A stretch of DNA of 64,000 bases. Origin: Podarcis gaigeae (lineage: Eukaryota). The stretch is from the NCBI GenBank assembly GCA_964106915.2, contig OZ066917.1; one strand, 5' to 3'. The position numbers were made by a program, and so were the translations under genes. The notes below the pieces were generated by a model. It made no database searches and had not been told where the DNA came from. It saw nothing but the letters and a program-made list of their open reading frames with translations. Shown here one piece after another: positions 26,301-64,000 of this stretch (its first letter is position 1; each line of letters starts with the position of its first letter).

Positions 26301-29300
26301 TAGCAAATTAATAAAAGGTAATTTAAGTGTCTTCAAATTTTGAAGTAAGGCACACATTGAAAATCATTTGTATGATATGTATGCATGCAAAGCTCTGCCA
26401 CTGAGCTATAGCCCTAACATCACATTTTGCTGTTAGACCTCTTTATTTTCCCAGGGTTTTAAATATTTGTTGTGTATTGCAGTGTTTAAACATTTTATAC
26501 TCTTTGATCTATTATGTTCCTTTTTGTGGTTTTAGTTAGTTTTTTCCTTTGTAATTTAATGTTTTATTGAAATCATGTAAGCTCTGGAAATATAATGCAT
26601 GGAATAAAATATTGTTATTTTCCAACCACAGGCATTATTACTGAAAAAGGACTGCGGCAGGAGATCCCTCCTGTTCTACAATATCACATTATCAAGGTGG
26701 CTCTAGAATTGCCTGCAAACAAGTTTTCCTGGTTCAAAATGCAGGTCGGAACATGAGGGTTATTTTTGTCTCCTATATTAAGACCAGCTGTCTTACTCAT
26801 TGGTTTCCTAATCTGTTTTGTCTGTAAGGCAGTCATAAATTCCATTTCGTCAAGAGACCTGTGTGTTGTGAGCAATTATATTCACATTATACAAGTAGTG
26901 ATGTTCTCAGAGGTAGCAATAAAGCTTTGACCATGCTGTAGGGCAGGGATGGAGAACCTTTGGTCCTCCAGATATTGCTGGACTACAAGTCCCAGCATCC
27001 CTGGCCATTTGCCACACTAGTGGCTGATAGGAATCACTATTATTATAATATATATATTCATAGGTAAAGGTATATATTATTATAATACATATATTCGTAA
27101 GTAAAGGTAAAGGGTCCAGTTGTGACCGACTCTGGGGTTGCGGCACTCATCTCGCTTTATTGGCTGAGGGAGCCGGCGTACAGCTTCCGGGTCATGTTGC
27201 CAGCATGACTAAGCCGCTTCTGGCGAACCAGAGCAGCGCATGGAAACACCGTTTACCTTCCCGCCAGAGTGGTACCTATTTATCTACTTGCACTTTGACG
27301 TGCTTTCGAACTGCTAGGTTGGCAGGAGTAGGGACTGAGCAATGGGAGCTCACCCTGTCGCAGGGATTCGAACCGCCAACCTTCTGATTGGAAAGTCCTA
27401 GGCTCTGTGGTTTAACCCACAGNNNNNNNNNNNNNNNNNNNNNNNNNNNNNNNNNNNNNNNNNNNNNNNNNNNNNNNNNNNNNNNNNNNNNNNNNNNNNN
27501 NNNNNNNNNNNNNNNNNNNNNNNNNNNNNNNNNNNNNNNNNNNNNNNNNNTTATAGGGATTCAAGGCATCTTACAGATAAGAATAAGAGCAGCTAGATAC
27601 GGGGGGGGGGGAATCAATATTTTTTTAAAAAATAAACATTGATAGATATAAACTGTAGTTCAAGAAGAAGAATTGCTGTGAGCTGTCCCTGGCTCTTAAA
27701 GCAAAATGCTTACATAGGATTTTCTCTACTGGCATGATTTTAGTTTGTATACAGGTATTTTCTAAAGGAGAAAACCTCTCCCTGATTTAACTACAGAAAA
27801 GTCTTTTGAAAGTTTGCATTTAGAACAAGAAGTGACTTCCAGAGGCTGGGAATGACTGTGCCCATGTCTGTGCCCACTTCTGCCCTTTGCATTTTAACTC
27901 TTTTGTGGAGTGGCATTTGTATCAACGGGAAAGGATTGGGTCTGGGGCACAGGATAAACACTGATAAAGCTTTGCCCTTCAGCAGGTATGCCAAACAAGC
28001 TTGTTTGGGAGGCTCAGAATTTCACAAAGAGGACTGTTCTCTCAGTTGTGTGAGATTCTGAATGAAAGACGGGAGCACAGACAGCAGATCAAATGACTAT
28101 TCAAAGTGAAATTACAAAAGTCCTGTTTGGGTCCTCACCTTTATTAGGACAACCAGTATGTCACAGGAAAGCAAGCGAGCTTTTGATTTCCCAGAATTCT
28201 TCATCAGGCTGGAGTTGAACAAAGGAGTGGAGGAGAAAAAAAGAGAAAGCTGGCTTGGGGAAGGCCTGTAGCCCAGTGGTACCACATCTGCCTTGCATTC
28301 ATCAGGCCACGTTTTAACCTCAACATCTCCAGGTACGCTGGAGGACTGCTGCCAGTCATTGCAGCAAGATGAACCAGTGGTCTGACTCAACACAAAACAG
28401 CTTCTTGTGTTCCTAAGATTTTGAAGCCACAAAGTCTGCATTTAATCATATAATGTAGGTAAAGACTGCAGAGGTGATAGCATTAGCTTCTCCTAGGTGC
28501 TGTGTAGCTTTCAAAATTATGATTATATTTTCAGAAATGGAGGCTTAGCTGTTACTGGTGTAGCCATCCTAGGTGTGGCTGGAAAGCTTTATAGCACCTA
28601 GCCCCACCTACGTTTTAAGACAACAGCCATGTTTGCACATAATGATAAGCAAGACTTTCTGGCTTACTGTGGTTTATTAGGAATGAGAAACATGCTGGCA
28701 CATACCACCTGATCTCCCCCAATTTGCTGCTGCTCCCCTGGTGCAAGCTAGATGAACAAACCAGCAGGGCTTAGCATCCTTTTACAATCCAAACCAAGGA
28801 TTGTGGTCTCTTGCTCCATTACAGGTCACAAATCAGCAGTTGTAGCTTCAGGTTATGTCAGGGCACATCCAGCTTGGATGTAATGAGAAGTCAAGGCTTT
28901 CTCACATCAGGAAAGGAGCAAAGTGGATGCAACTGGGCTATGCGTGCCACCAGCACACCACTTGCCCTGATGAACCATGTAAGCCATAAAATCTGGCTTG
29001 CCATTACATATGAACACAACATATGACTGAACTGTTCTTTTTAATGAATTTATTTCTTTATTTATTGGAGCTTCCAGGGTCTACAAAAACAAATGCAGGA
29101 TTTGTGGCTTGAACATCAAGAGAATTTTCTTTCCTTCCTCTCCCCCATGTCTCTTAACGTTAGACTTAACATCCAGCCTGATAGGACTTAAAAACTTGGC
29201 TACTATTTTGTGGCACTATGGTTGGTCCCATAAAGGTATTGCTTAACTGTGGATGTTTAATTTTTCTTATGGACCAACAAGATATACTTCGCTTTTTGTG

Positions 29301-32300
29301 TTCAAGGGAAGTGGGGAACTCTGAATTGTTCAACCTTGACCCCCAAGCTCTATGAAAGCAGAGTTGGCACTTGGCACAAGTTGTCAGTAACAGGGTTATA
29401 GGCATCAGTCTCTGCGGAGAGAACCCAAAACAATTTTATGAATTGTAATCAATAAAGTGTGTCCTCCTAGGATGAAGCCGAGAAGGTCTCTGGCGAAAGA
29501 TCAGTATTTTATTTGCTGATGAAAATGTTCGTAACAAGCAATCATTTGCACCTCAAAACCTCAACAAAGAAATTGATTATTAAGGTGAGCTTTTTTTTAA
29601 TCTAGTTTTCAAAATTGTGTTGTGCCCACAGAAAAGTTGTTCACAGTGAAGACACTTTAGAACAGGTTTCCTCAGTCTTGGCCCTCCAGATGTTTTTGGC
29701 CTACAACTCCCATGACCCCTAGCTAGCAGGACCTCAGTGGTCAGGGATGATGGGAATTGTAGTCTCAAAATATCTGGAGGGCCGAGTTTGAGGAAGCCTG
29801 CTTTAGAAAGTTGGATTTAGGGTTAGTAATAAGCACGAACACTGTATTCGCGCCCTGGATTGTATCCAGCATTGCATGAATGGCATCCCACTCACACAAC
29901 AGAACTGTCACACCCCCCCAATCTTTCAGAGTTGATTTTTAGGGTATGCAGGGAGCTGGAGGGGACAGGAAAATTGGTTGCACACACATAAGTCTGTTGT
30001 GTGAGTGGAATGGAGCTGCAGGGCTGACTAGAGCCTCCTCTGTTCCATAGAATATACCACTTGTGGCCTGTTTGCTGTATTCCCAGGAAATGGGTTTAGT
30101 TACTTCACTTTTTTATTCTTTCTTCAAGTCTCTGTTATCAAGTCTGTATTATGGCAATGAATTTGGTTGTAGGTTGTGAATACTGATACTCTGCTCTTCA
30201 AGGACACAAAATATACTGCTTATGGAAATCCAAGTTTTCCTTCAGATGTTATGAATGGACTGATACTTGATGAAATCATCTGTGTGGGGAGGTTCAGACT
30301 TCATGCAGGTGGTTGCAAGGCAACCTCCAGTGTGTTACTTGAGCACTTTTGTTAGGAAAAAGCACTGCCAAATGTTACACAACTCCCCTTGGGGTTGCCC
30401 TGGTTTTGCTCTCCACCCTTCAATTTAATGCAGTAGTGGGTTTTTGTTTTTTTTTATATGAAGTCTAAACTGGGTGATTTAGCAGTAAAATCCAGCCCCT
30501 CACTTCACCTTCTGAACAGCTGACTGGTGTGCTTGTGACTTTTACAGGGCCACACACACATGGCTCTAGCTGCTGGATGAGCTGGGGAAACGTAAATGTG
30601 TTTCCCCATCAAGCTAGGGGTTCATGTGTGTGAGAAGTCTGTGGTCTCTTTGTAGGTTGAGGTGAATAACATTGTTTCCATATAAATGTTTATAATTCAA
30701 TTATTCATAGTGCTAGTGTTTTCTTTAGTTACAAACTTTCCTCCCTGCCCTTTACCCTAAGATCCCAGGATGGATTGCAGTGATAAAATGTACAATTATT
30801 AAAACAGGACGCACCCCAAACAGGTTCCTGCCTCTTTTCATAGGCTTGAATTTGGTAGCTGGTGCTGACAGTAAAACTCTCCACCGCAACCCGTGGACAG
30901 GCTATTCCATGCTGTCTGCGTTACAATAAAGGAGAGACAGGGTTTGACCTACCCTTTGGCAGAGTCGTTCAGGGTCCTGAGAGCAAGTTTGAATGATCCT
31001 TACCTAAAGGAATCCTTACAAAATGTTCTCTGGACTAATAGTTCCATCTCTTTTCNNNNNNNNNNNNNNNNNNNNNNNNNNNNNNNNNNNNNNNNNNNNN
31101 NNNNNNNNNNNNNNNNNNNNNNNNNNNNNNNNNNNNNNNNNNNNNNNNNNNNNNNNNNNNNNNNNNNNNNNNNNNNNNNNNNNNNNNNNNNNNNNNNNNN
31201 NNNGCACATGAAATCATTCCAAATGGAACAGAACAGTATAAATTCAGCACAAGAGGTGGGTCCCATGAAACAAAATGCTGTGGCTGTCAAAGGCCAGGGT
31301 GTAAAGAGGTGTGTTGCCAGCATACAGCAGAAGCTGCCCTTAGAAGATGCTGAACACTTCTCTATGGGGTGGGAATTCCAGAATTTATGGAATTCTGCCT
31401 TAAAGAAAGCCCCCTCCCAGGTTTCCACTTCTGAGGGCAGGGCAGTACTGCTGAAAGGGCTCCCTCTACAGATCATCACACCCAAGAAGATCAGTAGGGA
31501 TAGAGAAAGTATTTTATTTACATGGGCTTTAAACACTAATGTGAGCGCTATTGGTGTATGCTATGGAATTGGAATGGAAGGCTCTTGCAAGATGGGGTTT
31601 TTGTGCCGGCATAGATAAAGGAAAGTGGTTGAGGAGGGAGCAACACAAGAGGCTTATATACTTTTAAATAACCTGCTTTTCCATTAATTGTGGTATGTTT
31701 TTAAATAGGGGTCAAGGTAAAAATGACTCTTGCCATCTGCTGCTGATCTTTCTTTAAATCAAACAGCCAAAATGAGAGCTGACATACAAAAATAGAACTG
31801 AAAGCTTTGCATGATAATTGTTTTTTTAACAGGTTCTGCACGACAGTGGAGTATTTGAGTATACCTGGAAGGAACTTGAACTGTGGCTTGAACACTTGGA
31901 TAACACAGCAGAAGGCAAAAAGGAAGCAGTGATTCAGTTTTTGGAAAGGGTAATAAATGTGCAAATTAACCAGATTAACAATGCCAAGAATAGCATATGT
32001 GGGGACTTATTACCTTTTGTTGTTTTAAAGAGGAGAGTGTTTTGAAAAATCATGAATGGATTCTGAGAACTCATATCTCCTAGACACGGAAGGGAACAAA
32101 GGAGATGAGTGATAGGAAAAGGCTTTTGTTAGAGATTTCCACTACAGTGGGTGGCATTGACAAAAGATTGTTTTTCACCATCAGTTTTATATCAGCATCT
32201 GCTGTTACAGCAGAGTGAACAAAGGACATGGGAAGGAAATGCAGCAAAGTTATGTAAACCATGATTTAATCCTACCAACGATGCTATCCTTTTTTGTGTG

Positions 32301-47300: not shown

Positions 47301-50300
47301 AATAGTGAAGGGGTGGGTGGGTGTTTTCCCCCACAGCATCTCCTGTCCTGTATTTTGTTACGTTGTTTTGCAGGAGTTTGGAATCATTAGATTTGTCAGT
47401 GCTATGAGGAATATTGGCTGCTGCTGGATTGAGTATGTGAAATCTGGGTGGAGCGGGGGCATAAAAGGAAATTCAAGTGGCTGAGAAGCTACACACAGTT
47501 AGGCCACATGAACAGGTGTTTCGTTTTTGTTTTTTGAGAAAGCTACCAAGCAGGCAGGATTTCCAAATCAAATTTGAAAGAAGAAAGAGAGACTGTGTAG
47601 TGAGTACAGCATTTAAGGGTATGTGGTAGTGGGAGTAAGTAGGTTGATTTAAATAGGGTGAAGCAGAGCTTGTTTTTAGTCTTGGGTGGGAGAAGACAAT
47701 TTTTCATCTTTGGAATGGCAACCTCTTCCCACCACCAGAAACAATATTGTTTTGAAAAGCACTGCTTGCTTTGATTCTCTGTTTTTGTGGATGATTTGTT
47801 ACCTCACCTGTCCACCGACTCTTGTTTACTTTTCCTTGTGGCTTCATAGCCATAGCTTCTCTTAGCTTGCGTTACCACAGAAAGAAAATCTTTTCTGGTC
47901 AGTGGCAGCAAGGCATTCTGTGAATGTGTGAAAGCATTTGCTTAGGTCACAGGCATGGCCAAACTTGGCCCTCCAGCTGTTTGGGGACTACGGTTCCATC
48001 ATCCCTATCCACTGGTCCTGTTAGCTAGGGATGATGGGAGTTGTAATCCCAAAACAGCTAGAGGGCCAAGTTTGGCCATGCCTGGTGTAGGACATGGGAG
48101 CATCCAGCTAAAGGCTGTCCACCCCACTACAGTCAAAACCAGATATTTTCCCCATTATGATTCCTGTATCATTTTTGTCTTTCTCACTAACACCATCCAA
48201 GCTGCAGATCTTGCTTTGGTTCCTCTTTGCCTCTCTTGCTGCCTCAGTTCCCTGAGGCTTTCTCCCACTTACTGCATCACACAATCCTTCCTTTTATCCT
48301 TCAAATAATCTTTTAAGAACCTGCTGTCTCCATGGAATCTTTTGACAGCCGTTCGTTCTGAACGTGCTCTATGGAACAACCCCAAACATGCTGGGCCGTT
48401 ACAGCAGGTGGCCGAAAGGGTCTTTGTTATATTTTTTGCTTCCTACATGTGTTTATAACAGTCTCCTGTGAATAAATGTTCCATAATTGCTTCTCACTGG
48501 GCGTAAAAGCCCCAAATGAAATACAAAAGGGGAAAAAGACACCTCTAGAACTGATCATTATCTCAGCAGCCGTTTCCCCTTGATTTTTCCAAGGTTTTGT
48601 AAACAAAACTGTATGTCCAACATAAATTAAACTTGCTGTCAAGTTTCATTTTGCCAAGGCCAGGTCCAGCATTGATGTTTCCTTCCATGACCTATACTCC
48701 TATTTCCAGATTAATCTTCACTCCATAAATTTAGGGCTAGCCCCCAAAATACAGAACAAGATTCCTTGTTGACAGAATCTCTCTTTTAGTAAGGGAAAAG
48801 GGGTGGCTCACGGGGAAAAGATTCAGCTGTAATTGCTCTGCCTTCCAGTTCCAAACTTTCAATCACTAGCTTGAAGTAGAATCACTGCTCCACAAATACA
48901 CATGCACTGATGAAACAGAAATAGAGATCCTTGTTACCAAGCTGTATCAAACACCACATGGTACAAACAAAAGCATGGTAAAGAGTAATTAGTTCTGTTT
49001 TAATTGACCCTGTATGTGCACCTCGGTGTATGGGAAGGAGGGCTACAAAGAGATAGGGTTTGGGTGGTGCCAGAATGGAAGGCTCCTTAGAAACTCAGGT
49101 GCAAGAGGGTTTCTGTCTTTATTTGCTTAAGCAGAGGCAATTCAGAGAGATTCTATCTTGAATTCTTTGTTGCAGAAGAATAGAAGAGGATAATTTTCTA
49201 ATCAGGCATTCATTCACTCTTCTTCTAGAAATTGCTATGATTTAATGTGCATACCTATAATTTAGTCTTCCTTTAAAAAATTACCTTGTAAAAGATTTTG
49301 AGAGTTTCCTTTTTACATTTTAAAACATTCCTTCCCCTTCCTTTTTTCCTATGTAGAGTGTGTTGTAGCATATCATAAGTTTGTTGACGTCAATGCCTTG
49401 GGTCTGGCAGTAGCAGCCCTTAGCAGCTATGACAGTAACATGCGAGCGGCAGCATACTATGTCCTGAGCTCTTTCCGCTCTCACCTGGAAGGGGCTCGGT
49501 TTAGAGAACAGAAACAGGTAAGGAGTTAACTTTAGCTTTCCTAAAGTATGCAGTGGTTTGAAAACATGCCTAAGTCTAAACTTGCTCTGAAAGCATCTCC
49601 TAGGATAACTGTATTGCTAACTGCCAAAGATGTCAATATGCTTCTGATTTTCAGGGTACTATGTAACTTCCTTGCCCACCTCCCAGTTTTCCAAATTATG
49701 TATAGGACTCAACCCACGAGTGAAATACAGAACTTAATATTTCCCATTCATTTGTATTAGTAATCATTTCCTCATCACTTCCATTCAGTTATATTAGGAT
49801 AGGTATTCTAATTCAATTGAGTATAATTTCTATACTATGATTAACATATACTTTCTGCAGTTTCTGATGAAAATCATACTGTGTTGTCATATGAGGACTG
49901 TGTTTACAATTGAGCAGTTACTGATAGGATCATACAACCAATTTCCTGATTATTTCTCTCTTTTTGTCTTGTGCTTCAGTTGGTTTACCTTATGGATGTT
50001 GTGCAGAATGGAATCAGACAACCAAATCTCAGATTTACTTTCCCTTTGGCACTGTATGTTTCAAGAGTAGCCCACCAAATGCTAAAGCCAGGTATTCTAG
50101 AACAAGTTACACCTGCTCTCTAATCTTCCTTCATTCATAAGATAACCATTTTGTTTTTGTTGGTTTTGTTTCAGAATGAAAAACAATGGCTTTTAGTCAA
50201 ATTGTACTTCCATTTTAGATATCCCTGTGATCATGAAATGTTTGTCAGATTTGTCATGCTGTAAAAGGAGAGATTTTTAAGATGAGCATAGAAATTTCTT

Positions 50301-53300
50301 GAGTTTAATAATGGAAATGATAAGGGCGTTTTTCATGCTACAGTAACCATTCTGTTTTCTTCCCAGAGGAGCACATGTACACAAAGCTGAACAAGTTCCT
50401 TCTATCTCATCAGTATTTGGATTTGAAGAAGGTGCCTGGATTTTTTCAGCTTTTCTACAGTTTTGATTCCGAGGTAATAGAAATCTGTGTAAACTGTCAT
50501 TCATGAATAGCACAATTATTTGCTTTCTGTTCTCTGTACACAAAAATCTGGTACCTGTCAAGTAATTCTGAGAATCTTTCTTTTCTTTTCCTGTCTGTTG
50601 CAACCAAATCACCATGTAAATAGTCTTTATAGTTGATTGCAGCACCCAGGATCTTCATTTCTAAACTCTGAGCATGGTAAAAGAGTCATTGTTCAGACAC
50701 TGAGATTAGTGTCCATGTGGCAGCCGCCTCTTCCTGTTACACAATTCTGTTCATGCATGGCCTCTTTATTTTTTCCTTCTGCTATTCACCACATTTTTGA
50801 AACACATTCCAAATTCCATATTTGCATTATTATTATTTTTAAAAGTATTTTTATTAAATTTTATCCATATAACCCAAATAACAAAATACAACAAACAAAA
50901 CACATAAAAACTAAACCAAATCACGGCAGGCATGGGATGTTACATTCACAAGAAAAAATGGTGAAGCTGGTTATCTGTGTGTTTGCGCTAAGATACAGAC
51001 AGGCAAGTGGAGCATCTTTTTCCCTACATTCAGTATGTGACTGTATAAGAAGGCACATTCTGAATGCAGAAAAATGATTAAAATTGTTTAAGCCGTTTAA
51101 AATAAGGAATGTGTATTATATTTAGCAACATCACAAATTACTAGCATATCTGGAATTTAGGTTTCTGTGTCTCTGTTTGCAGCATCATGTGTTCCCCCCC
51201 CCCCTTCTTTCTTCATCTTTATCCGATCTGTTGGAGACATTCCTATAGAGTGGAAATAGAGTGGAAAAGTTACAATAGTAATTTATGCTCCCTCTTTATT
51301 TTCCAGCACAAAATGGAGCGTGAATGGATTCTTGCAATTATTGGGGAAGGACTCAAAGACAAACACTGCTATGAACTATATGATTATCAGAGAATTTTCC
51401 ATGTCATTCTGTCTTTCTTCCATAGTCCGCTGTGTGATGAATCCTCCCAGGTAAAATGCAACTGAAACACATACAGATACTCCTAAAAGCTTTTAACTTA
51501 AAGCAAAAAGAAAACATTGAAGACTTTTTCTCTAAGAACTATTCTAATTCAGTCATATATTAAAAGAAAAACATCCAGTTAAGTCTTTAATGTGTCAAGA
51601 TATATCTCATTACTGTTTCTCTCCCCCACCTCACCCCAATATTTGCTAGTAAGGTTTTATAAAACTTAGTAATTATGTATGAATAGAAAGCTTGAGACAA
51701 AATTTGAAAATAACAAGCTATCTCCTAAGACCAAGGAGCGTGCTAAAAAGGCAGGGGGAAGTATTGTAAAATTGTTGAAAACACTAGAACCAAAAATATT
51801 GGGGTACTCTATATATATAACACATAGAAGCAAGATAAAGGTCACCAAGTATCCTTAGAATGTCTGTCTGCATTCTGGAGGAGTCATGGTACCATTTTGC
51901 ATGCATTTTAAGGCGAGATATTGAAGACAATGTTCAGATGGATACTGTAGATTCTGCCTACACTCATGAGAAGATAATTTCCAGAGTGACGCCATCTTTG
52001 ATGTATTCACTCCAAAAGACTGTTGGTCTCAAAGGTGCCACAGAACTCTTTTATTGTGTTTGCAGATAATTAGATCTAGTTGTTTTCCCCTTGTTTCATT
52101 CCCAAAGGCTTAAAATTGCAGCTGTGAAAGTTATTAAGGACATCTTATGTAACTAAATAATAATATTATTTTTTTGTCTTTCAGCATCAGATTCTGGAAA
52201 TACTTCAAAATGCTGCATACATCACCAAAGCTGCCTATCAGCTAATAAGAGATCACAGCCTATTAACTTGGATAATATCTGTACTAGATAAAAGGTGCAT
52301 AGAAGAGTATTCATGATTGATTGCTAAATAATTTCTTTCACCTTTTTAAATGTGCATATACGAGAGCAATAAATTAGGATAAGCATTTTTTGCTCGTAGA
52401 GGTCATGGTATGCCACTAAGGCAGGCTATCCTAAGAACATTTAGAAGGATGCCAGCTTCAATGAACAGACTTACTTTTGAACAAATGTGCATACAGTTGC
52501 ACAGTGAAACAGCTTAAGCCCTTTAAATCCTTTTACTTAGAGATACTTTAAAAACTTTGATTCTGTTAAAATGTTAGCCTGTACATATAATTATCAACTT
52601 AGTTAAGGATTATTAACTATAGTTTCCATGTAGTCCGAAGCTGCACTCCATGTGCCTGCAAAGACTTGAGTTCATTAACTGGAATTTAACAGAGTGTTCT
52701 ATTGCTTCTTTGGAGAAAACATTTTATTAATACTCTGTCGTCCTTGTTTGTTGAAGAAAACTTGGCCTCTAAATAGGTTTCTGAAATGTAATGTAACTGA
52801 ATTAATAGTCAGAAAACTGGCTGTGGCAATGTTTTATTTAAAAGCTGAATCTCCTGTTCTTGAAACTCAACTTAAATTCTCCAGGGATTAATAAAGAGGT
52901 TATGAGGATTGTTATGCTGTTAGTGGGAAAACGACACTGGGTTGTTCTGCCCATGGTTGCTGCTACTGTGGTTTGCTTTTAGCAACTTCAGCACTCTTCA
53001 GTTTAGGTCCCATATTAAACTGGTATGAATTAAAAGAAATGGGATCCTATTTTTGGCTTGCAGCGTTCATCTCTGAAAAACTGTTGAACTAAGTTTCTGT
53101 TTTCACACAGTTTCTCAGTACACACACATACACACTGTAGTGTTTGATGTGGGAAATGTGAATTTCCTACATGCATGTTCAAAGTCTACTCAAGGTTTAA
53201 ATCCTACAGTGACTCTTTCAAATAAATACATCAACAGGAACGTACACTCTGGATTCAGTCTTGGATTTTTCCCGTTCATTCATTTTTTCCCCTCAGGTGA

Positions 53301-56300
53301 AAGGCAATATTAAAAGTAACATTTTGTGTATCCAGCTCATGGGACTAGTGGATAATGGTTGAGAAATATTATTTTTTAAATGCTATTTTGGTGCACTATT
53401 GTAATCTAGTCTTCTATAAAGTAAACATGGAACATTTTTTATTTTAACTTTTTTTTTCATTCATTCATTCATTCATTCATTCATTCATTCATTCATTCTT
53501 TCTAGGTTTCTGGAATCCAAGATGCTAAGCAGTGTCATCTCTTTAGTCCATACACTTTGGGTAACCAATTTAGGAGATAAACAAAAGTCACTTGGAACAC
53601 CTGATACGAAGGAGCTACTAGAGAATCAGAGATTCCTTCCTCTCCAGCTTGTCAGTGAATTTCTTCACATTTTATTAATGCTTCTTAAACACATTCGGTA
53701 TGTATTTCCTTCTGTTTTCAAGAGTACAGTCATACCTCCGGTTAAAGACACTTCGGGTTAAATCTTTTCAGGTTGTGTCCCGCGGCGACCCGGAAGTAAC
53801 GGAATGGGTTTCTTCTGGGTTTTGCTGCTCACGCATGCACCGACACTCAGAATTTTGTCATGTGCAGATGCAGCAAATCGCGGCCCACACACACATGGGT
53901 TGCGTTCTGCTCATGTTGTGAACGGGGCTCCGGAACGGATCCTGCTCGCATCCAGAGGTACCACTGTATAATGTAACTGGAATTAAATTTCATTGAACCT
54001 TGAGTTTTTGTAATAACTCAAAATTCACCTTTTATTTTTCATTGTAAATGGCAACAATCTTTTTTATTAAAAAACAGCTTATCTGCAGAGATCTGAAATG
54101 CCTTGGTTGGTACTTGCTAATGTCTAAGTGGCCCACTCATCATTTCTGCTCAGTGGGAGCCTGTCTTCAATACATTGTGCTTTTATTTATTTTCCAGAAT
54201 ATCTTTCTCACCTTTCTAAATTGTAATCAAGGCTGTGAACGGGGGCCATGGAGAAGCACTGCTGAAGTCTGCTTAGCATTCAGTAGTCTATGCCTTCTAA
54301 AAACTATGGTATTTTTTGGCCACTGCAATTCTTCAGAGCCTTAGTTCTCAGTCAATTTTGGTAGTTCTTAACCCTTAGAGTCATTTTCACCCCTAACAAG
54401 ATGTTATGCCTGATTTTGTCTCTTTTCACTGACCAGTTTTCCATTTGACCTAACCCTTATACTGTGTGATTTTTACTTGAGTTCACTACAATGCATTCAC
54501 CAGTAAAACAATTTTAGCTTTTTATTTTTGTTTACTGTGTACCTGCATTTTCAGGAAAGACATACACTAAAAGCTATGTACATCAAGCACCTGAGTAGCC
54601 CTGCCTGAAAAGTGTATGCATATTTGGAAGGAAGAAATAGATTCAAAACCTGTGAAAATGAATTGGCTATTTGAACCCAACTAGCACATGTATTGTTGTT
54701 TGGAAGTGTTATTCCTACTATGGCTTGGTTCATATGTGACATTAAAGCATCTTTTAAAATAAGCTGTGGTTTAATGCCCATAAGTATGTTGCTCCTACTT
54801 CACTCTTGACTGTATGGTATGGGAGAGGAAACAAGCCAGAGTCTGGCTTGATGTGAACTGTGTACCCAGCCTTGAGGTTTGTTTCCTCCCAGGTTTGCAC
54901 ATCATGACAAGCCAGGCTCTGTCTTGTATCCTCTCCTGCAGGGCATAGTAACAGTGGAAGAGAAAAGAAGCGCTCATGTATACTAAACCATAGTTTATTT
55001 AAAAATTGCATGCAAGCCAGAGCAAATTATGCAACCTGATAACAAACGATAACTCAAATCAGTAGCCTTCATGTTTCACTGCTGTCTTTTTGCTGCAATC
55101 TTATCTGCCTCAGACTCTTATTTTGTGTTAGACAAAAATTAAATAAACCGTCACTTGTTTCCAAACAAAAGCAAATTTTGAGTTTAGTTACTATTTGGGT
55201 TGAGCATTGTAACCTTTGTTTTCTCCATCTCTTGCCAAATAGGACCAACTTGGATTCTGCCATATTGATTCAGTTTTTCAGCACGTTGAGTTCTGTATTG
55301 GAATACCGCGTTGTGGTTTTTGAGGCCTTCAGACAAATGGGAAGATTCACTGTGAATGAGCATGTCCTTTCAAACAAAGATGTTCTGCTGCTCTTGCACA
55401 AGTGGAGCATAATTGGCAAAGACGTGGAACTTCAAGATGTTCTTCAGATATTTGCTCAACAGTACCAAATAAAAGAATTGCTTAGTAAGTTCTAAATATA
55501 TCATGTGTTTTAAATAAGGTCAGCTATTTTCTGCTGAATTCTGAAAGTACTGAATGCAACAGCCAGCTCATCATATTTCATCAAATGCATGGAACAAGAG
55601 GAAGCCCTTAACCACACACTAAAAAGATATTATTGTTGGCCCCAGGCAGGCTTCCTCGGGAAGTTTGAAAAGGGAGTAGAAATCATTAAAATATATGTGT
55701 ACTTCATTAATAACATCAGACATGATCCAAGAAAAAGGATTTCATATCTCCCTTGTTTGTTTGTTTGTTTGTGTGTGTGTTTTTTTTGTCTAGTGGTAAA
55801 CTTCATAGAACATCACCATATGCTCCTTATATAAAATGAAGCTCTGAGTATAAGTGACTTTCATCATGTCAATTTGCCAGGATCTGCTTATGACAGTCAA
55901 GGCCTTACCCAAACACTTTTCCCTTTCCTGAGCCTTTGTAGGGGTGGATAATTAAGGAGCAGAGACCTGTGTGGAAGCAGAAACCATTTTAGTTTGTGTG
56001 ATCCCACACATAAAACACCACTGAGATGGGTAAATAAAAGAAAGAGCTCTCATTTTTAAGATAGTGGGAAATTGCTTTTGTTAATGTAGATTTAAAAGAG
56101 AGGGTTTATAATAATGTTTGTTTAGAGAAAATATTTTTGGCAGCATTCATGCAAAATCTATGGAGTGATGATAATCTCAAGATAAATCCCTTCCAGTAGC
56201 ACCTTAAAGACCAACTAAGTTAGTTCTTGGTATGAGCTTTCGTGTGCAGATACCTGTTTACCTCAAGATAAATGTTCAGGTCTGGGCTTCCTGCAACTGA

Positions 56301-57911
56301 GCTATTTGTTTTGTTGGGATTTGGTTGAACTTTTAACCTGTTACTTTCCAACTTTAAAAGCATAATTCAGCAAGAGGTTCTATCTGTCCTTCTGTCTCGC
56401 TTTTAAATAAATACTGAATTGATTAATTTATTACCATTCTCCCTTAGGTGTGAATATGTCTTCGCAGCAGTGCAGGAGAGGTTAAGACAGGTGCAAGATG
56501 ATGGTTGTGCAGAGTCGTGAAAAAATCAGTTTACACCTTTTGAAACCTCTCCTGTACCAATGTGAAGACATCTGCTTGCTGCAACTTGGAGACATCCAAG
56601 TACCCACTGAGAAACATTTTTCACAATAAGACCAACAAATACTTTTCAGAAAATTCCAATTTTCTCATTTTTCTTTAAATTATTGTAAGTATTTTGTTTG
56701 TTTTCTTCTACTACAGAAAACATTAAAGACAAAAACAAAGCACAAGCACCATTTCGAACATCATCCCGACTTGTTCGGAAGAAGAATGAAATTGAAACAG
56801 AGCCAGAAACAGCATCTGAGCGGGGGGAGAAATATTTAGAGGAATGCAGATCTGTCCTGAGATCTGTGCTTTTCCACTGGGAACCTGTATTCCTGGATAT
56901 GCCAGCAAAGCATTCAAAAGAGCACAATGGAGATGACAATCCTGGTCTTACGTGTAAGATTGCTTACTTAGTATTCAGATGGCTAGTGAAGTCTCTTCTC
57001 GACAGCAGCTTCAACGTGCAAAATGTACTTTTGACTTTCAAGTGGTTTGAAAAGAGTGCTTTGCAAAACAGCACTGTGGTAGATGAGATTCTTAAAGATT
57101 CAACTCTCAAAAGTGGTATATTTAAGCTTTACAGTACTGTCTACAATGCCTGTGAAGAGAAGGCTATGGAACTGAGTGATCTCTCCTTGCTTAATGGAAT
57201 CATGCTGCACCTGCTAAATTCCCAGAACCTGACCAAAAATGCTTTTCATGAGACTGTGGAAAGGTTCTGCCTCTCGACAGTAACAGAGGAAGAAAGAACG
57301 AAGAAAGGTAATGTTATTTTCAGCAAGGAAGTTGAGGAGAAACTAAGCATATGATCTTTCTGCCCCATAAAACCTCTTGAAATTTTGCCTTTTGCTATAA
57401 TATGGTAATTCCAGAAGATACTAAGAGATTAACTAGTAATGTAGAGTAGGATATTCTGGTGACATTAAAATTGATTGAGAAATTAAATAAGCCTGAGTAT
57501 GGTAAGGGATATTCTAAGGGATAAAGTGTTGTTTAACATCAATAACCCATGTTCGCTTAATGAAGTATCAAATGTTCCATTTTAAAAAATGTATTGGAAA
57601 CTCTGTCATTTAAAATAAGCAGAGTAAATGATGAATATAGATCAACTTTTAAGAAAAGATCTTGATTGTGACAATTATTTTCTTATTTCCTAGGGGCAAG
57701 CATATTCCTCACTTCTGTTTACATTGGAGATCTTTGGCTGGGAGCAAAGCAACCAGACACATTTATAACCCATGTTAAACTGATACATGGAACAGCAAAC
57801 GGTAAACAAAAGAATGATGATCAAAGAACACGGGAACCTGAAGAAGCTATAGCTTCTCTCTGCAAAGACATTTACCCATTCTTAATTCATCACCCTGTCT
57901 TTCAATCTTAA
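10076..57911 (+). CDS. URB1: URB1 ribosome biogenesis homolog (Npa1, nucleolar pre-ribosomal-associated protein 1), 39 coding exons, about 2284 aa
   Basis: Manual join: 10076-10226, 11581-11720, 12362-12513, 14046-14178, 16031-16127, 16753-16838, 17552-17677, 18393-18523, 19828-20023, 21901-22038, 23956-24129, 25278-25422, 26195-26317, 26632-26744, 29471-29584, 31833-31949, 32997-33135, 34228-34401, 34693-34877, 35692-35910, 36335-36514, 37310-38165, 38705-38906, 40191-40374, 41607-41665, 41936-42129, 43488-43598, 44339-44402, 45210-45381, 46212-46314, 49357-49517, 49980-50091, 50367-50473, 51307-51450, 52185-52294, 53506-53697, 55243-55484, 56717-57307, 57694-57911 (TAA). Total 6855 nt, all introns GT-AG with matching phases. 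Peptides match URB1, e.g. MGAKRK, ELTGTQFKSTLRDP, YDVVEGYIKVSVECAEI, ILLRTASDLSHF, LLWGPAAVEHHK, YDPCFLL, LGLAVAALSSYD. Confidence 0.97.
12716..13420 (-). mobile_element. Decayed L1-clade LINE 3' fragment (ORF2 C-terminus and tail) in URB1 intron 3
   Basis: - strand translation PRCRRECQDMGTYLHLWWEY fits the L1 ORF2 C-terminal CX3CX7HX4C zinc knuckle with the last C mutated; A-rich tail near 12716. Confidence 0.7.
14766..15310. mobile_element. Non-autonomous hAT DNA transposon (545 bp) with GC/CpG-rich cargo
   Basis: TIRs CAGTGGCATAGCGTGGG / CCCACGCTACGCCGCTG; perfect 8-bp TSD CAGGGACA (14758-14765, 15311-15318); internal perfect 33-bp tandem duplication at 15217-15282. Confidence 0.9.
15347..15587. 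mobile_element. Tc1/mariner (Tigger-like) MITE
   Basis: TIRs CAGTGGTACCTTGGAAG / CTTCCAAGGTACGACTG flanked by TA on both sides. Confidence 0.85.
18215..18347 (-). mobile_element. Degenerate tRNA-derived SINE head (Squam2-like)
   Basis: - strand CCATAGCTCAGTGGCAGAGCACATGCTT...AAGGTCCC tRNA-like head. Confidence 0.6.
22955..23370 (+). mobile_element. Two adjacent L2-type LINE 3' ends ending in (TTA)n tails
   Basis: GCTGCTCTGAG...GGGTGGGATATAAATAAA tail, followed by a second piece AGGGCCTTCTCGGTAGTGGCGCCC...TGGAACGCCCTCCC...GCTGCCCAGAGTGGC...GGGCGGGGTATAAATAA(TTA)n. Confidence 0.8.
23323..23406. repeat. Compound (TTA)n(CTA)n(CAA)n microsatellite grown from the L2 tail
   Basis: Direct read. 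Confidence 0.9.
27101..27422 (-). mobile_element. Sauria SINE, 5' end lost in an assembly gap
   Basis: Reverse complement homologous to 707-1050; GGTAAA tail repeats; GATTCGAAC B-box complement. Confidence 0.9.
27423..27550. other. Assembly gap (N run)
   Basis: Ns; intronic, and URB1 exon phases on either side are compatible. Confidence 1.
28138..28210 (-). mobile_element. Penelope-like element end with a degenerate minimal hammerhead ribozyme
   Basis: - strand AGC-CTGATGA-AGAATTCTGGGAAATC-AAAA-GCTC-GCT, followed by TGGTTGTCCTAATAAAGG. Confidence 0.65.
29663..29800. mobile_element. Palindromic hAT MITE
   Basis: TIRs CAGGTTTCCTCA / TGAGGAAGCCTG; perfect 8-bp TSD CTTTAGAA. Confidence 0.9.
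31056..31203. other. Assembly gap (N run)
   Basis: Ns, intronic. Confidence 1.
35151..35286. mobile_element. Palindromic hAT MITE (same core family as 29663-29800)
   Basis: TIRs CAGGCACCCC / GGGGATGCCTG; TSD ATTAACAT/GTTAACAT (7 of 8 match). Confidence 0.85.
40600..41050 (+). mobile_element. Old L2 LINE fragment
   Basis: AGGCTAGATTACTGCAAC encodes RLDYCN, a motif of the L2 RT C-terminal region; later CTCTGGAAC motif; heavily decayed. Confidence 0.6.
41284..41509. mobile_element. Tc1/mariner (Tigger-like) MITE
   Basis: TIRs CAATGGTACCTCGGGTTA / TAACCCAAGGTACCACTG, with TA on the left flank. Confidence 0.8.
44269..44314. repeat. (TCTA)n microsatellite just upstream of the URB1 exon 28 acceptor
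   Basis: Direct read. Confidence 0.95.
47950..48084. mobile_element. Palindromic hAT-type MITE (same core family)
   Basis: Perfect TIRs CAGGCATGGCCAAACTTGGCCCTC / GAGGGCCAAGTTTGGCCATGCCTG; no clear TSD. Confidence 0.85.
53457..53496. repeat. (TCAT)10 microsatellite inside the URB1 exon 36 acceptor region
   Basis: Direct read; followed by TCTTTCTAG and the exon. Confidence 0.95.
53727..53966. mobile_element. Tc1/mariner (Tigger-like) MITE
   Basis: TA-CAGTCATACCTCCGG ... CCAGAGGTACCACTG-TA; related to 15347-15587. Confidence 0.8.
56188..56261 (-). mobile_element. 74-bp Penelope-like element end with internally deleted hammerhead and 12-bp TSD
   Basis: Flanked by CTCAAGATAAAT (56176-56187, 56262-56273); - strand GGTATCTG-CACACGAAAGCTCATACC...GTTGGTCTTTAAGGTGCTACTGG. 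Confidence 0.75.
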
Positions 57912-58126: not shown

Positions 58127-58757
58127 CTACTAAAACCAAAACACCTGACTCAGTTAGAATGGTTGGTTGACTCAAAAACAAACTGAATAGGTGACAAGAA
58201 AAAAAAATTCAAGTCATCACCCTACATCGATTTTCTACATTCACTTTACTTCTTTAAAAGACTCATGCAGAATTAGGGCTTCATAGACACCAGGGCCAGT
58301 AGGAAGATATTTTTGGGAACACTAACATGCAATTCCTATTTGGACCCCCTCAGAGAAATAGTGTGAGATGGGTTATAGCAGGCAAGACATGCACTCAATT
58401 CAGACAGTGATTTCTGGCTTGTATTACATCTGATCTGGGGAACTAAGATTTAATGTCAACTAACAAGTCATCATGATTCTGGTTTGATAGCCCCAGTTCC
58501 CTGATTCAGAAATAATACAAGTAGCAATGAAGTGACACAGTAGTAATCCAAACCAGGACATTGCGAGCCTAATGGAAGCAGGGAATGTATGATACAGTAT
58601 TTTAGAATTTTAGAAGCAACGTAGCCCAGGTGTTCATTAATTAGATGCTTAAGGATATAAATCTAGGATGCTTGCTTTGCATCCAAGTCCTGTCTTTCAT
58701 AAGGGCATACGACCTTACATTTCCTTTCATCTACAGAACACAAAGCATTGTACTTAC

Positions 58758-59553
58758 TTCACGGGTGTAGAACCAGTCCGAGATATATAGAACAAAATAA
58801 GGAAAAGAAATGCCACAAAAGAAACAAGCCCAATCCAAAGGGCTATGACAATTGAATCTGTGGAAAGAAATACAGTATTTATAACACCTTACAAATCCTT
58901 AAGGCATTTATTATAGATTTATTATAGATTACTAAGCAATATTACGTCCACTCAAGGAAGGCTTCTTTCCCAAGGAATAGGGGCTGTAGTGCTTTAAGTG
59001 AGGACACCCTCCTGAAACTCCAAATACTAAAAAAATTAATAGCAAAACATTGCTTTCATTAGTATAGCATTTGAAGTGCATGACTTATATTCTCAGTTTT
59101 AATGTAACAGTAAGAGGGAAGCTGTCATTTACTACAATGTTCAAAACATATTAATGTATTCCAGCAGTTAAGTCATTTGAAAACAAAAATATACATTCCA
59201 TCCCATTTTAATGTATACATACTTGGAAAAGAGTTTCAATGAAGTAGGTGGACTGTCTTAGTAGTCAACCTGCACAAGACTGGTACTGAATTTGGTAGTC
59301 AACAAATTACTATGCAGTAGTCAGAAACCCCAGTCTAAAAAAGCAATTTATATGCAGAAAGTGTTTTTACAAAAACATTAAACTTTTCAAAGGATGTTTT
59401 CTTTTTTGTTGTTTTTGCTTTAGTTGGTCACATAATGCAATACTTACATCTGTTTGCCTTCAGCATTCTTGCATCAACTGGAAGTAGATCTAAATAATCC
59501 ATGTAATATTCAAAATCGTAAGTAAAACTGGATGAATTTGTCTTGTTAGCCAT
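58758..59553 (-). CDS. MRAP: MRAP (melanocortin-2 receptor accessory protein 1): coding exons 59448-59553 (106 nt) and 58758-58857 (100 nt); final exon uncertain
   Basis: Translation MANKTNSSSFTYDFEYYMDYLDLLPVDARMLKANR/YSIVIALWIGLVSFVAFLFLILFYISRTGSTPVK contains N-glycosylation sequons, an EYY-xDYL activation motif, an LKANRYS topology motif and a single TM helix. Both donors are GTAAGT and the acceptor is TTTCCACAG. Exon sizes of 106 and 100 nt match my recollection of human MRAP. Syntenic between URB1 and MIS18A. Confidence 0.95.
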
Positions 59554-59659
59554 CTCAGTACAACCTCCTAGCCAGCTCTAACCCCAACCAACAATTATGA
59601 TGAGTTGTACTTAAGTGTTCCTATAAAGAGATTCTGTAGTTGTGCAGTTTTTCATTTGA

Positions 59660-59720
59660 GCAGACATCCTTGAGGAATGCCAAGATACCAGACCCAATCA
59701 GCAGAAATGAAGGTCAGTGT
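59660..59720 (-). promoter_or_regulatory. Candidate MRAP proximal promoter with two NR5A1/SF-1-type sites and a CCAAT box
   Basis: TCAAGGATG (- strand, 59665-59673), CCAATCAG (59694-59701) and TGAAGGTCA (59708-59716), 110-165 nt upstream of the ATG. Confidence 0.5.
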
Positions 59721-60589
59721 ATGGCGATGGTCTCTGGTGCCAGAATGACAAATGTGAACATTCCTTGCGGGAAGTACAAGATGTTGTTAACTCTTTTATG
59801 TTTTCACTAATACAGAACTAAGTAATAAGAAAAGACACATAGTCAAGTTGGTAAAGAAAACCATGCCAGCAGGTGACAGGCTATCATCATCATCATTTTA
59901 TTCATAACCTGTTCTTCATTTAATATTTCGACCCCACAGCAGGAAAAATGGCAATATACAAAAATTAAGGACTAATTAAAAAGTCAAATAAATAAATAAC
60001 CCTGTCATAAAACAAACAAAGCTAAACGCAGGGAGGACAACCAACACATTACCAAGATAAACAAACACGACACCCAGCCCACTAAAATAAAGCAAATGGC
60101 GTTAGCAACAGCTGACACCCCATTTTTCACCCACAGCACTGCCCACTTACTCCCCGTTTCAACAGAGTGATCGCTGCAGGAAATGAACAACTCCACCTTT
60201 CAATCCTCTCCAATGCACCCCCCCCCCTTCCCCACAACTGACCACGAAACGAACACGGATGTGGGAAATGGGTGGCACGTGGAGACTCCTCAAAGAAGTC
60301 TTCCACCACACTGGAGTCAGTTGTTTTGCAGGCGCAATGATGCCACTGCTACGTGTGATGTGCTTCCTACTGCCACCTCGAGCAGGTTTTTGAGCAAAAC
60401 CTGCACAGTGTGCATATTCTTGCTGTTATCATTAGCAGCTTCATCTCTCGAGGTTGGTTGGTGGTACTGAGAATCGTGTCTGTCGAAAAGATTGTAAGAA
60501 TCACGCGACCCCCCTTTTTTAAAAAAATCTTCAGAATTTGGAGTTTTTATTCTTTCATAACTACTTCTCTCAGAAATCACTACCATGCA

Positions 60590-60872
60590 ACCTCGCAAAG
60601 ACCCTTTGACCGCTCAAGGCGGCTGCTTCCCCCGCGTTGCTATGGCGAACTCCGCAACCTGCCCGACCGAGGCCCTTCCCTGGTGCTGAATCACCCAGCT
60701 CCACAGCGCATGCTCCCACCCGCTCTCGAGCGCCGCCGACTCCGCCCCTTCTCCTGGGAGAGGCCAAAGAGAAGGGCTCGGTTTGCGCGCTAGAGCGGCA
60801 CCGCGTTGCATCTGTTATTTCCGGCGCTGGCGCGGAGGGGAGGGGGCGCGGCGCGGGCGGCTTTGAAAGAGA
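60590..60872 (+). promoter_or_regulatory. MIS18A CpG-island promoter with CDE/CHR and E2F-like sites
   Basis: CHR TTTGAA at 60862-60867 with a CGCGGG CDE-like element 4 nt upstream; TTTGCGCGC and TTTCCGGCGC; X-box-like GTTGCTATGGCGAAC at 60636-60650. Confidence 0.7.
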
Positions 60873-63847
60873 ATGGCGGCGCACCCGGGGGAAGACAGCT
60901 CTCTCCCGTTGACGGAGGCGTCCCCTGGCAGCCCGGGGCCCGGAGAGGAAGCGGGGTCCGAGGAGCTGCCCATGGTGTTCCTGTGCGCTGGCTGCAAGCG
61001 GCCCGTAGGAGACACGCTCGGCTGGGAGTTCAACGACGAGGACACCAACTGCATCTTGTTGAAGAGTGAGCGACGAGGCGCCCGCCCGCCGGCCCGCGCG
61101 GCTAATCACCTGGGAAACGCTCTGCGCCCGCCCGCACCGCGGCTTTCCCTCGCGCGTGCAAATATTCGCGCGCTCGTCCTCCTCTCCGCCCCCCCCCCCC
61201 AATAAACCAGCATTCAGTGGCTCCTCTCTTGGCTTTGTTCGCGCCCTTCTTTACGTAGGTCTTAGGACCCAAGTCTCCCTTCTTGAGGCGGTTTTAGGCT
61301 GCGCCATCACTTGAAATTATCTGGGCGACTTAAGAGGGAATTAAAGCAAAGGCATTGCAATAAAAGAACGTGAATATGGTGAAGCTGCAGAAGGAACAGC
61401 AAAACACTTGAAAAGAGAGAACGGGGGAAAGATTCTGCAGTGCTAACGTTGCCATCCTATATTTGTGTGTGCGTCCAGTTATTTTCAGTGGGGTTTTCGC
61501 CCAGGTAAATGTGCTTAAACATGCAGCCAAAGATAATTCATGGGACTCAGTTCTAGTGCTAGTGACGTATATGCCACTTTTTAATTTCCAAAGTGTATTG
61601 GAATATGCATTAAACTTACTCCTTGCCACCCGGTTGACCAAAGCATGTGGGCATTATTGTGCCCCTTAGTTGGGACAGAGGTTTTTGCCAACCCACTTCA
61701 GTGTTTTCCCATTCTGTGTTGGCGATAAATAGCATAATTGGGCTGGGAGTACTTATGGGAGACTACTTTTCTACTGATCTTACATCTTTTGATTTTCAGA
61801 TGTTACGCTCAATGTTTCAGTGGACAAGGAACAAAAACTTTCAAGCCGAGCAGGCGAATATGGCTGGTAAGCGGTGAAAATCCCAAAGTGAAACAGATGT
61901 GTCACACAATAAAGCTTTATGCTAAAGAAGAAAGTCAAAAGAAAGGTTTGCCCTAAAAGTATCTATATGGGCTAATAGACAATATGTTTGGACTCATTTT
62001 TATTAGGAAGGGGAATAGGAAGCCACTTTAGAGCAGGTTTTTTTGGTCTGTTTTTTTGAAGCCATCTGTTTTAAGCCTGTTACTCATACTGAATCTTTGA
62101 GGAAGTGTGGGATGTATATCTTATTATGTTAGTCTTTTCAGGATTTTTTAGGAGACATTCCTTGGGAAGTGTGTGCATACATAATAAAAATACATAGGTT
62201 AATGATCTTCAGTGCTTGCTACTGAGTTGTCACTTCTTAAAATATTTACAAGTGTTCCAAGAAAAGTAATTTCCACACAGTTTTGAATCTGTTTGAACAT
62301 TTAAGCTACATTGTTTGTGCTTATTGACTAAGACTAAAACTGGTTTAAGAGTTTGGTTCACATCTGCTAACCATCACTCTGAATAGTTGTTTTGTTTTTT
62401 TGCGCACTTGCATGAATGCAGTACATGGGAATTTGCACCTTTTTGACCAAGTCCTTAAAAAAAGTCCTGGGAAAACCATTTTTTTAATGGACTGATTCTT
62501 AAAATGTAATGCAGTGGTTGGAGTACCCAGCAAGGACTTGAATGTGGTGGAATCAGCTATTATCAAAAGCACGAAGGTCTGGGTGATCAGACCATGGCTG
62601 GGGACTCTGCTGGGTAGCACCCAAGAAGCATAAGAAGGTTCTAATAGTGGGTTCCCAACCCGCTTCAGGTTGATCCCTCTGACACCTTTGGCTGTCCTGT
62701 CTAACATGGATGCCTGGTCTTGTTTATCCCTCTTGAGACCATAAACACGGGGCCCCTGTACAAACCAAGACAGTTCAGCTTCTGCCTTATCTGTTATCTC
62801 TCAAATAGGCCCCAAGCTGGCTGTCTCCAGGGTGCCTGGCATTGTATTACAAAGCATCACATAGTGTTACATTTTGCCTGACTGCCTTCTCCCAGACTTG
62901 CTTGGTTGTTGTGTCTTTTTTATCGTGAAGTGGCCTTCACATGCACAGCTGCTTCTGACACCTGTGGTAATCTCTTGGCCTTCCTTGTAAAGGAAGGTCA
63001 CCCACTCGCAGTCACACTCTAGGCTGTCTTTGCTTTATGATCTAATTAAGTTGAAGAGCAAAGGAGAGAACTGGAAAAAAGGTTGCAATGGTACAGTATT
63101 AGGATTTTCAAACCAGATTAATACAACAAAGTATATAAAATAATTCTGTCTGATTGCAATAACTATTTCAGAATAAATTCATATCTTGACTGCATTGCCA
63201 CAAAATCCCTACTTGGCTGTGAATACCAGTTGGTGATTTTGGAGCCAGGCATTAAGACACAGACCAACCTAGAGGAGTGTTGTGAATGATAGAATTGTAG
63301 AGTTGGAAAGGGACCCTGAGGGTCATCTAGTCCAACCCCCTGCAATGTAGGAATCTCAACTAAAGCATCCATGACAGATAGCCATCCAACTTTAAAACTT
63401 CCAATGAAGGAGAGTCTGCAACCTCTTGAGGGAGACCGTTCCACTGTTGGAACAGCTCTTACTGTCAGAAAGTTCTTCCTGATGTTTAGTGATGATAACT
63501 AGGAGTGGGCAGGAATGCCAGGTATGCTGCTAGAAGCTCCTCAGAAGGAGGACAGGATAAATCATTTTTATTTAAAATATATGTAAAAAAAACAACTTTC
63601 CACTAATTGTTTTATGCCATTTGTTTAATTTGTACTGGAAGTGGTACATTGCTGTGTTCCGAATTACAACATGAACATGTTAAAATGATGTTACATATTT
63701 TCTAAGTGATGCTTTGCTTTACAGCATGCTTGAAACCTTGTTTTGCACTGGGTGCAACATGACCCTTGGAAGCATTTACAGATGCACTCCGAGACATCTG
63801 GATTATAAACGAGATTTATTTTGCTTAAATGTTGATGCTCTTGAAAG
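60873..63847 (+). CDS. MIS18A: MIS18A (Mis18-alpha kinetochore protein), coding exons 1-3 (60873-61065, 61800-61866, 63725-63847); gene continues beyond the window
   Basis: [19 protein letters not shown]...[23 protein letters not shown]...[42 protein letters not shown] is a Yippee/Mis18 domain with two CxxC pairs; GT-AG introns with consistent phases. Confidence 0.96.
63289..63490 (-). mobile_element. CR1 LINE 3' end
   Basis: ATAGAATTGTAGAGTTGGAAAGGGACCC...GGTCATCTAGTCCAACCCCCTGC...GTCAGAAAGTTCTTCCT, typical of a CR1 3' UTR and RT end. Confidence 0.85.
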
Positions 63848-64000
63848 GTAAGCAAAGCAATAGTTCTGTTTGCCTTTCTTCTGATGATAATTGATTATTT
63901 AAATACTCTTAAAACTGGACAACTTCCTCAATACTCCAGGTTATTTCTGATGTGCGTAAAGTTTTTTGCGGGGAGGGGAGGAACAGTAGTCCAAATATTT

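Follow-up and report, generated by a model that had tools for sequence, protein, structure and literature searches.

The MRAP1 locus of the lacertid lizard Podarcis gaigeae: a conserved two-exon core with variable predicted tails

Two core exons of MRAP1 between MIS18A and URB1

The window, by which we mean the whole stretch of 64,000 nucleotides analysed, lies at C8:55862001-55926000 of the Podarcis gaigeae genome assembly and carries two coding exons of MRAP1 on its minus strand (Table 1). The first-pass annotation had proposed two minus-strand exons spanning 58758-59553, and the coordinates agree exactly at both exon ends, with canonical splice sites. When the 590-nt intron is removed, exons 1 and 2 join in frame to give 68 codons without a stop. 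Exon 1 matched the Pfam MRAP family (PF15183) with an E value of 9e-12 and 45 bits, against a cut-off of 27, and exon 2 alone gave no Pfam match by hmmscan. In a six-frame, genome-wide search with the MRAP family, profile positions 1-39 and 37-69 fell on exons 1 and 2 at 41.7 and 39 bits, both above the cut-off. Only three of the ten family matches in the genome passed that cut-off, namely the two MRAP1 exons and one MRAP2 exon on contig C3.

Every element of the functional core that had been claimed for the locus (the N3 sequon, the activation motif, the topology motif and the transmembrane helix) is present in the sequence. Exon 1 contains the activation motif Y16 Y17 M18 D19 Y20 L21, that is, YY followed by MDYL at 18-21, together with two glycosylation sequons by sequence, N3-K-T and N6-S-S, the second of which was absent from the first-pass annotation. 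The basic topology motif LKANR occupies residues 31-35 and is extended by Y-S across the exon junction. Exon 2 codes for the transmembrane helix, a hydrophobic 21-mer starting at residue 38 with a mean Kyte-Doolittle value of 2.97, and for the juxtamembrane segment; the charge flanking the helix is +2 before and +2 to +4 after, as in other squamates. Residues E15, Y16, Y17, D19, Y20, D22, P25, V26, D27, L31 and K32 were invariant in all 14 aligned proteins, and the window keeps all of them. If exon 2 is left unspliced, the frame adds a single K and then meets a TAA stop formed by the donor itself. The gene as first drawn was incomplete at its 3' end, where exon 2 ends in a donor, and it left out a candidate exon of 81 nt that lies in frame within the intron.

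The gene order around the locus is MIS18A-MRAP-URB1, which is also the order reported for cattle (PMC6116989) and human (PMC12652779). MRAP1 stands head-to-head with MIS18A, with the start codons 1320 nt apart, and tail-to-tail with URB1, whose stop is only 846 nt from MRAP1 exon 2. A further MIS18A exon at 63684-63848 matched Pfam Yippee-Mis18 with an E value of 6e-13, and URB1 was named from a Pfam NopRA1 match (E 6e-10) at 49302-49526 together with exon-to-exon joints from 51305 on. The open frame of URB1 has an apparent stop at 57354, but splicing at 57307 carries it to the real stop at 57911. In relatives, the cover of the URB1 3' UTR extends to 58293-58785, reaching MRAP1 intron 2 and perhaps exon 2. 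The URB1 introns also contain two high-copy repeats, at about 53700-53970 and 56180-56250, where cover was very deep and loose ends were numerous in 4/4 runs; the repeat at about 56180-56250 resembles the end of a short interspersed element. A stretch of MIS18A intron at about 63330-63480 resembles the 3' end of a CR1-type retroelement.

Table 1. Features of the MRAP1 locus and melanocortin receptor loci elsewhere in the genome
Feature	Position	Strand	Remarks
MRAP1 coding exon 1 (residues 1-35)	59448..59553	-	106 nt; ATG at 59553; phase-1 GT donor
MRAP1 coding exon 2	58758..58857	-	100 nt; AG acceptor behind pyrimidine tract; phase-2 GT donor
Candidate cassette exon (81 nt, 27 aa)	58946..59026	-	in frame; AG and GT sites intact
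Candidate long 5' leader upstream of ATG	59554..60651	-	unbroken cover in RNA-type contigs
Alternative tail exon, acceptor to stop	57122..57149	-	inside URB1 coding exon, antisense; 77-aa product
Alternative tail exon of Lacerta agilis RefSeq model	55909..55966	-	in URB1 intron; donor position inferred
Alternative tail exon of Podarcis RefSeq models	55192..55326	-	antisense overlap with URB1 coding exon; tblastn E 7e-11; joints in X1 and X10
Most distal exon, Zootoca RefSeq model	50900..51242	-	in URB1 intron; 3' end approximate
CpG island between MRAP1 and MIS18A	60501..61300	.	GC 0.51-0.70; CpG o/e 0.94-1.07
MIS18A first coding exon	60873..61070	+	Pfam Yippee-Mis18 E 2e-5
URB1 penultimate coding exon	56717..57307	+	GT..AG joints in 4/4 runs
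URB1 last coding exon to stop	57694..57911	+	last intron 57308-57693
MC5R and MC2R	G000:C16:50620586-50638971
Melanocortin receptor	C15:15806186
Melanocortin receptor	C16:68495957
Melanocortin receptor	C17:42357789

Third coding exon, replacement tails and the candidate cassette

A homologous third-exon tail was found in six of the seven non-lacertid squamates, in at least one model each, Varanus being the one without it, and in none of the four lacertid models. The pairwise identity of this conserved squamate exon is about 45-55%. A profile built from the six squamate tails and run over both strands of the window reached at most 4.7 bits, compared with 32-67 bits in leave-one-out searches. 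In a frameshift-tolerant scan of 58757-57300, the best score for a tail exon was 20.2, a value reached by 52 of the 86 control tiles; planted controls scored 77-142, though they and the profile are not independent of each other. When the whole genome was searched with the Rhineura protein, residues 1-69 were recovered only at the MRAP1 locus, with no tail. A weak match on contig C15 that reached Rhineura residue 85 was regarded as background (E 0.14, containing a stop). A 13-residue resemblance near 58134 was likewise rejected as a tail relic: its score of 31 was under the mean of 35 for shuffled sequences, it lay outside the top 20 profile hits, and the frameshift scan was at background there. 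A database search with the Rhineura tail region returned no candidate and missed the known tails too, so that it was uninformative. Two N stretches, 27423-27550 and 31056-31203, hold unsearchable letters and lie more than 26 kb from exon 2, beyond the expected site of a tail exon. The third exon is thus undetectable in this genome, and from the protein models together with two related transcriptomes we infer that the loss is lacertid-wide.

RNA-type data came from four of 24 listed runs, which are contig sets (X1, X5, X7 and X10) from four studies and two related organisms. The contigs carry no strand, start, end or level, and the RNA status of the runs is the tool's guess; all four sets show spliced URB1 joints and are therefore RNA-derived. 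Of 26 splice joints 15 were shown, and the tool sets a bar of 31 letters for the short side of a joint. The direct joint between exons 1 and 2, 58857/59448 (CT..AC), appeared in three of the four runs, X1, X5 and X10, at depths of 4.9, 7.8 and 59.6, with a short side of 19-30 letters that is below this bar. Run X7 had no exon 1-2 joint.

Downstream of exon 2, the lacertid models use three different tail exons (55326, 55966 and 51242), all within URB1 and on the opposite strand. The joint 51243/55193 was seen in runs X1 and X10, and the joints 55964/58756 and 55327/55918 in run X10 only, as was the joint 57148/58757 (CT..AC) leading from exon 2 to the 57122-57149 exon. The Zootoca-type tail has a shorter frame in the window, with a stop at about 51185. 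The predicted products have 77-106 residues depending on the tail route and 69 on read-through. In two of the multi-exon tail routes, the stop lies 78-86 nt before the last junction, and a stop more than 50-55 nt before the last junction invites decay. Plasticity of the MRAP1 tail as such is already known, since alternative tails also occur in Rhineura, Ahaetulla and human.

For the history of the tail, we lean slightly toward a scenario in which lacertids deleted the last coding exon after the split from amphisbaenians, with the gene squeezed between MIS18A and URB1. The tail-less MRAP1 would then draw on several cryptic exons that run antisense across the 3' end of URB1 (an overlap of more than 6.5 kb, with two exons on URB1 coding exons) in a transcript from the CpG island shared with MIS18A, and the optional, lacertid-only 81-nt exon could switch off the topology motif.

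Upstream of the ATG, cover running from exon 1 reaches 59888 in X5 (a spliced record), 60067 in X1 and 60651 in X10. This candidate 1.1-kb unspliced leader contains 19 upstream ATGs, and the start context is weak. Like human MIS18A-AS1, which is reported to sit between MIS18A and MRAP (PMC12652779), the leader may represent divergent transcription from the promoter. Considering the long leader with its many upstream ATGs and the two tail routes with an early stop, some of the transcripts seen may yield little protein.

These observations also bear on a different account of the RNAs, which we consider possible but rather doubtful. Most of the spliced RNAs would stem from divergent read-through out of the MIS18A CpG-island promoter and would be poorly translated, while the adrenal message would start near the ATG and end soon past exon 2, yielding a 69-residue MRAP1 that stops at the donor TAA. 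Such an account fits the unbroken cover from exon 1 to 60651 inside the CpG island, the 19 upstream ATGs, the end of the unspliced frame one codon past exon 2 and a minus-strand ATTAAA near 58454, as well as the use of three different tails among four lacertid models and the reported position of human MIS18A-AS1 between the same two genes (PMC12652779). However, the contigs give neither start, end nor strand, no read has its 3' end near 58454, and the donor of exon 2 fits the consensus strongly and is used in run X10. A minimal form of 69 residues is compatible with the best explanation given below and alters only which isoform works.

The 81-nt candidate exon is inserted between the basic topology motif and the helix in three of the four lacertid RefSeq models (not in Zootoca). 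It is absent from all 10 non-lacertid proteins aligned. It gave one match in the genome, in a search that skips very common words, and its origin as a repeat fragment was rejected. With the cassette included, the activation motif would stand 47 instead of 20 residues before the helix, and the basic motif would be parted from the helix; the basic reverse-topology motif (31-37) directly precedes the single helix in the cassette-skipped form only. It is unlikely that the lacertid RefSeq models are right, either in that the working protein has the 27-residue insert and an altered geometry, or in that the insert marks an isoform under regulation that may be inactive or dominant-negative. The presence of the cassette in three of the four models, its intact AG and GT sites and frame in the window, its single genomic match and one X7 contig that ends exactly at the cassette acceptor 59026, as expected of a splice branch, all speak for inclusion. 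Against this, the direct skipping joint was seen in three of the four runs and none of the 15 joints shown, of 26 in these runs, leads into the cassette. The cassette is also missing in Zootoca and in every non-lacertid protein aligned, and the parting of the basic motif from the helix conflicts with a report that adjacency of the motif to the helix dictates topology (bioRxiv 2020.08.03.235200). The cassette form is probably a minor form that gene models have mistaken for the main one. A RefSeq Podarcis or Lacerta protein, if synthesised, would carry a 27-residue insert that is skipped by the RNA joints seen, and the motif spacing would be disturbed.

The MC2R partner and the proposed role of MRAP1

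Five melanocortin-receptor genes passed an E value of 1e-40, all without internal stops. MC2R, on contig C16, lies 17 kb from MC5R in a tail-to-tail arrangement and has an open frame of 329 codons. Its best PDB relative is human MC2R, with 427 bits compared with 302 for MC4R, and the equivalents of S19 and Y250, whose role is described in a summary of the cryo-EM complex (PMC11131010), are kept. On the side of the accessory protein, the activation motif has been defined in work in which Y20 ranks far ahead of D19 and of the residues on either side (PMC8591103, PMC9688151). The residues known to matter all lie in the two conserved exons.

We conclude, with a probability of about 0.92, that the locus holds the only MRAP1 gene of this lacertid, with intact core exons, that its product is likely an MC2R accessory subunit for surface delivery and ACTH activation, and that its tail is short and variable. 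By analogy with mouse, human, chicken and fish, the basic motif beside the helix would lead to dual membrane orientation and antiparallel dimers. The helix would accompany MC2R as it leaves the ER, and YY-MDYL, facing outward, would clamp ACTH on MC2R, chiefly through Y20. ACTH-bound MC2R would then raise cAMP and adrenal corticosterone output. The C-terminal tail would come from the cryptic exons on the strand opposite URB1, or read-through would end it at the donor stop.

The C-terminus of mouse MRAP1 is reported not to be required for MC2R activation (PMC4923161), and by that report the third exon is not a defining feature of MRAP1 function. The dispensability of the tail for MC2R activation is the likely reason why a variable tail is tolerated. 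The loss of the tail exon would make lacertids a natural test of the dispensability of the C-terminus that was claimed from mouse truncations.

A decaying MRAP1 pseudogene without its last exon, in an animal whose MC2R relies on MRAP2 or another helper, seems very improbable. The ancestral tail exon is indeed gone, the replacement tails vary by species, and the Zootoca-type frame is shorter here; but four lacertids agree at 64-66 of the 68 core residues, all key residues among them, whereas the nearby tails drift, the splice sites are intact and in use, and MC2R is intact. In addition, Anolis MC2R is reported to need an MRAP1, and the mouse tail is not required (PMC4923161).

Comparison with MRAP2 and with MRAP1 of other species

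The same genome has its own MRAP2 on contig C3 (G000:C3:41410095-41411854), with the first two coding exons intact at 130 nt and 100 nt. MRAP2 exon 2 likewise has a phase-2 donor and meets a stop if unspliced, so that this feature is not special to MRAP1. Compared with the MRAP1 core, this MRAP2 is identical at 27 of 64 residues and has a 4-residue gap at the MDYL position, which bears out the first-pass statement that MRAP2 lacks the DYL motif. A tree of 12 rows places the window beside Zootoca MRAP (93/96), with MRAP2 as a long outlying branch. None of its inner branches reaches starred support, and the tree was used for the MRAP1/MRAP2 split only. That the locus is MRAP2 or a recent duplicate is exceedingly improbable: a Pfam family and a 100-nt exon 2 are common to both genes, but a distinct MRAP2 without DYL lies on C3, the synteny is that of MRAP, and only two MRAP-family loci pass the cut-off genome-wide. 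Identity with MRAP2 was ruled out by the presence of the motif and by 27/64 identity to the resident MRAP2 as against 66/68 to Podarcis MRAP. The assignment to MRAP1, first made from the DYL motif and synteny, is upheld by the motif, by the MIS18A and URB1 neighbours and by the paralogue comparison.

The core in the window is identical to the RefSeq MRAP of Podarcis muralis (XP_028582856.1) at 66 of 68 residues (34/35 in exon 1 and 32/33 in exon 2). Both candidates returned by a database search with exon 1 were named MRAP, and their clusters comprised P. muralis XP_028582856.1, P. raffonei XP_053242578.1, Lacerta agilis XP_033002808.1 and Zootoca vivipara XP_034970674.1. A second search returned 12 candidates, and with their cluster members MRAP was named in Rhineura, Elgaria, Varanus, Anolis sagrei, Salvator, Ahaetulla and Pantherophis, and also in alligator and kakapo. 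MRAP is thus annotated in 11 squamate species, four lacertids and seven others. Anolis carolinensis was not among the proteins retrieved by this word-limited search, which says nothing on absence there.

The first-pass annotation had stated that early surveys did not find MRAP1 in Anolis. Such a statement is in print: mrap1 was reported in 2016 as undetected in X. tropicalis and A. carolinensis, though both MC2Rs need MRAP1 (PMC4923161). The Xenopus gene has since been cloned (PMC9251544, PMC8630767), and the statement no longer speaks for squamates; the 2016 doubt about reptile MRAP1 is answered for the squamate clade, A. carolinensis itself not having been retrieved. The squamate MRAP1 gene is already known, so the claim of novelty fails with annotations in 11 squamates including Anolis sagrei; what stands is that no functional characterisation was found for any squamate. 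In the literature searched, mostly outside subscription journals and in main texts, we found neither a functional study of any squamate MRAP1 nor a description of the lacertid gene structure, and PMC8891371 uses lizard MRAP2 only. The remaining yield is a correction to the annotation and a minor point of evolution, the loss of a tail exon with antisense replacements.

The first-pass annotation had also set MDYL here against LDYL in human and WDYI in chicken. MDYL is not special: it was carried by 7 of the 17 retrieved proteins, being common to lacertids, Anolis and Varanus, and the others have LDYI, TDYL, FDYL, FDYF, WDYI or WDYF; position 18 is reported to vary with small effect (PMC9688151). 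The human LDYL and chicken WDYI were given correctly, according to PDB 8gy7 and PMC9688151, respectively.

Taken together with known systems, MRAP2 has the family, the basic motif, the helix and the 100-nt exon 2 in common with MRAP1 but differs in the missing activation motif, in its place on another contig and in its 27/64 identity to the MRAP1 core. The four lacertid RefSeq models share MDYL and 64-66 of 68 core residues with the window, and each of their tail exons has a counterpart in it; the window differs by K30 to M and A47 to V. Residue 30 (codon 59464-59466, minus strand) is M here and K in the four other lacertids, and alligator has M too. The change takes away one positive charge beside the topology motif; it may distinguish the species, be allelic or stem from an error in the assembly. 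In the other squamates (Rhineura X1, Elgaria, Anolis sagrei XP_060626415, Salvator, Ahaetulla X1 and Pantherophis), 45-54 of 65-68 core residues are identical and the order of the motifs is the same, and these species keep the third coding exon that is undetectable in this genome. Human MRAP is described as a six-exon gene with its start in exon 3 (PMC5292628), and its alpha and beta isoforms as alternative C-terminal tails on one core (PMC5292628, PMC8961526). The human protein aligned with the Zootoca protein over residues 1-69 (E 1e-21). Human MRAP1, whose complex with MC2R and ACTH has a cryo-EM structure (PDB 8gy7), shares with the lizard gene two sequons (N3 and N6 in human; PMC8961526), YY followed by a hydrophobic-D-Y-hydrophobic motif, the basic motif, the helix and the gene order, and has LDYL where the window has MDYL.
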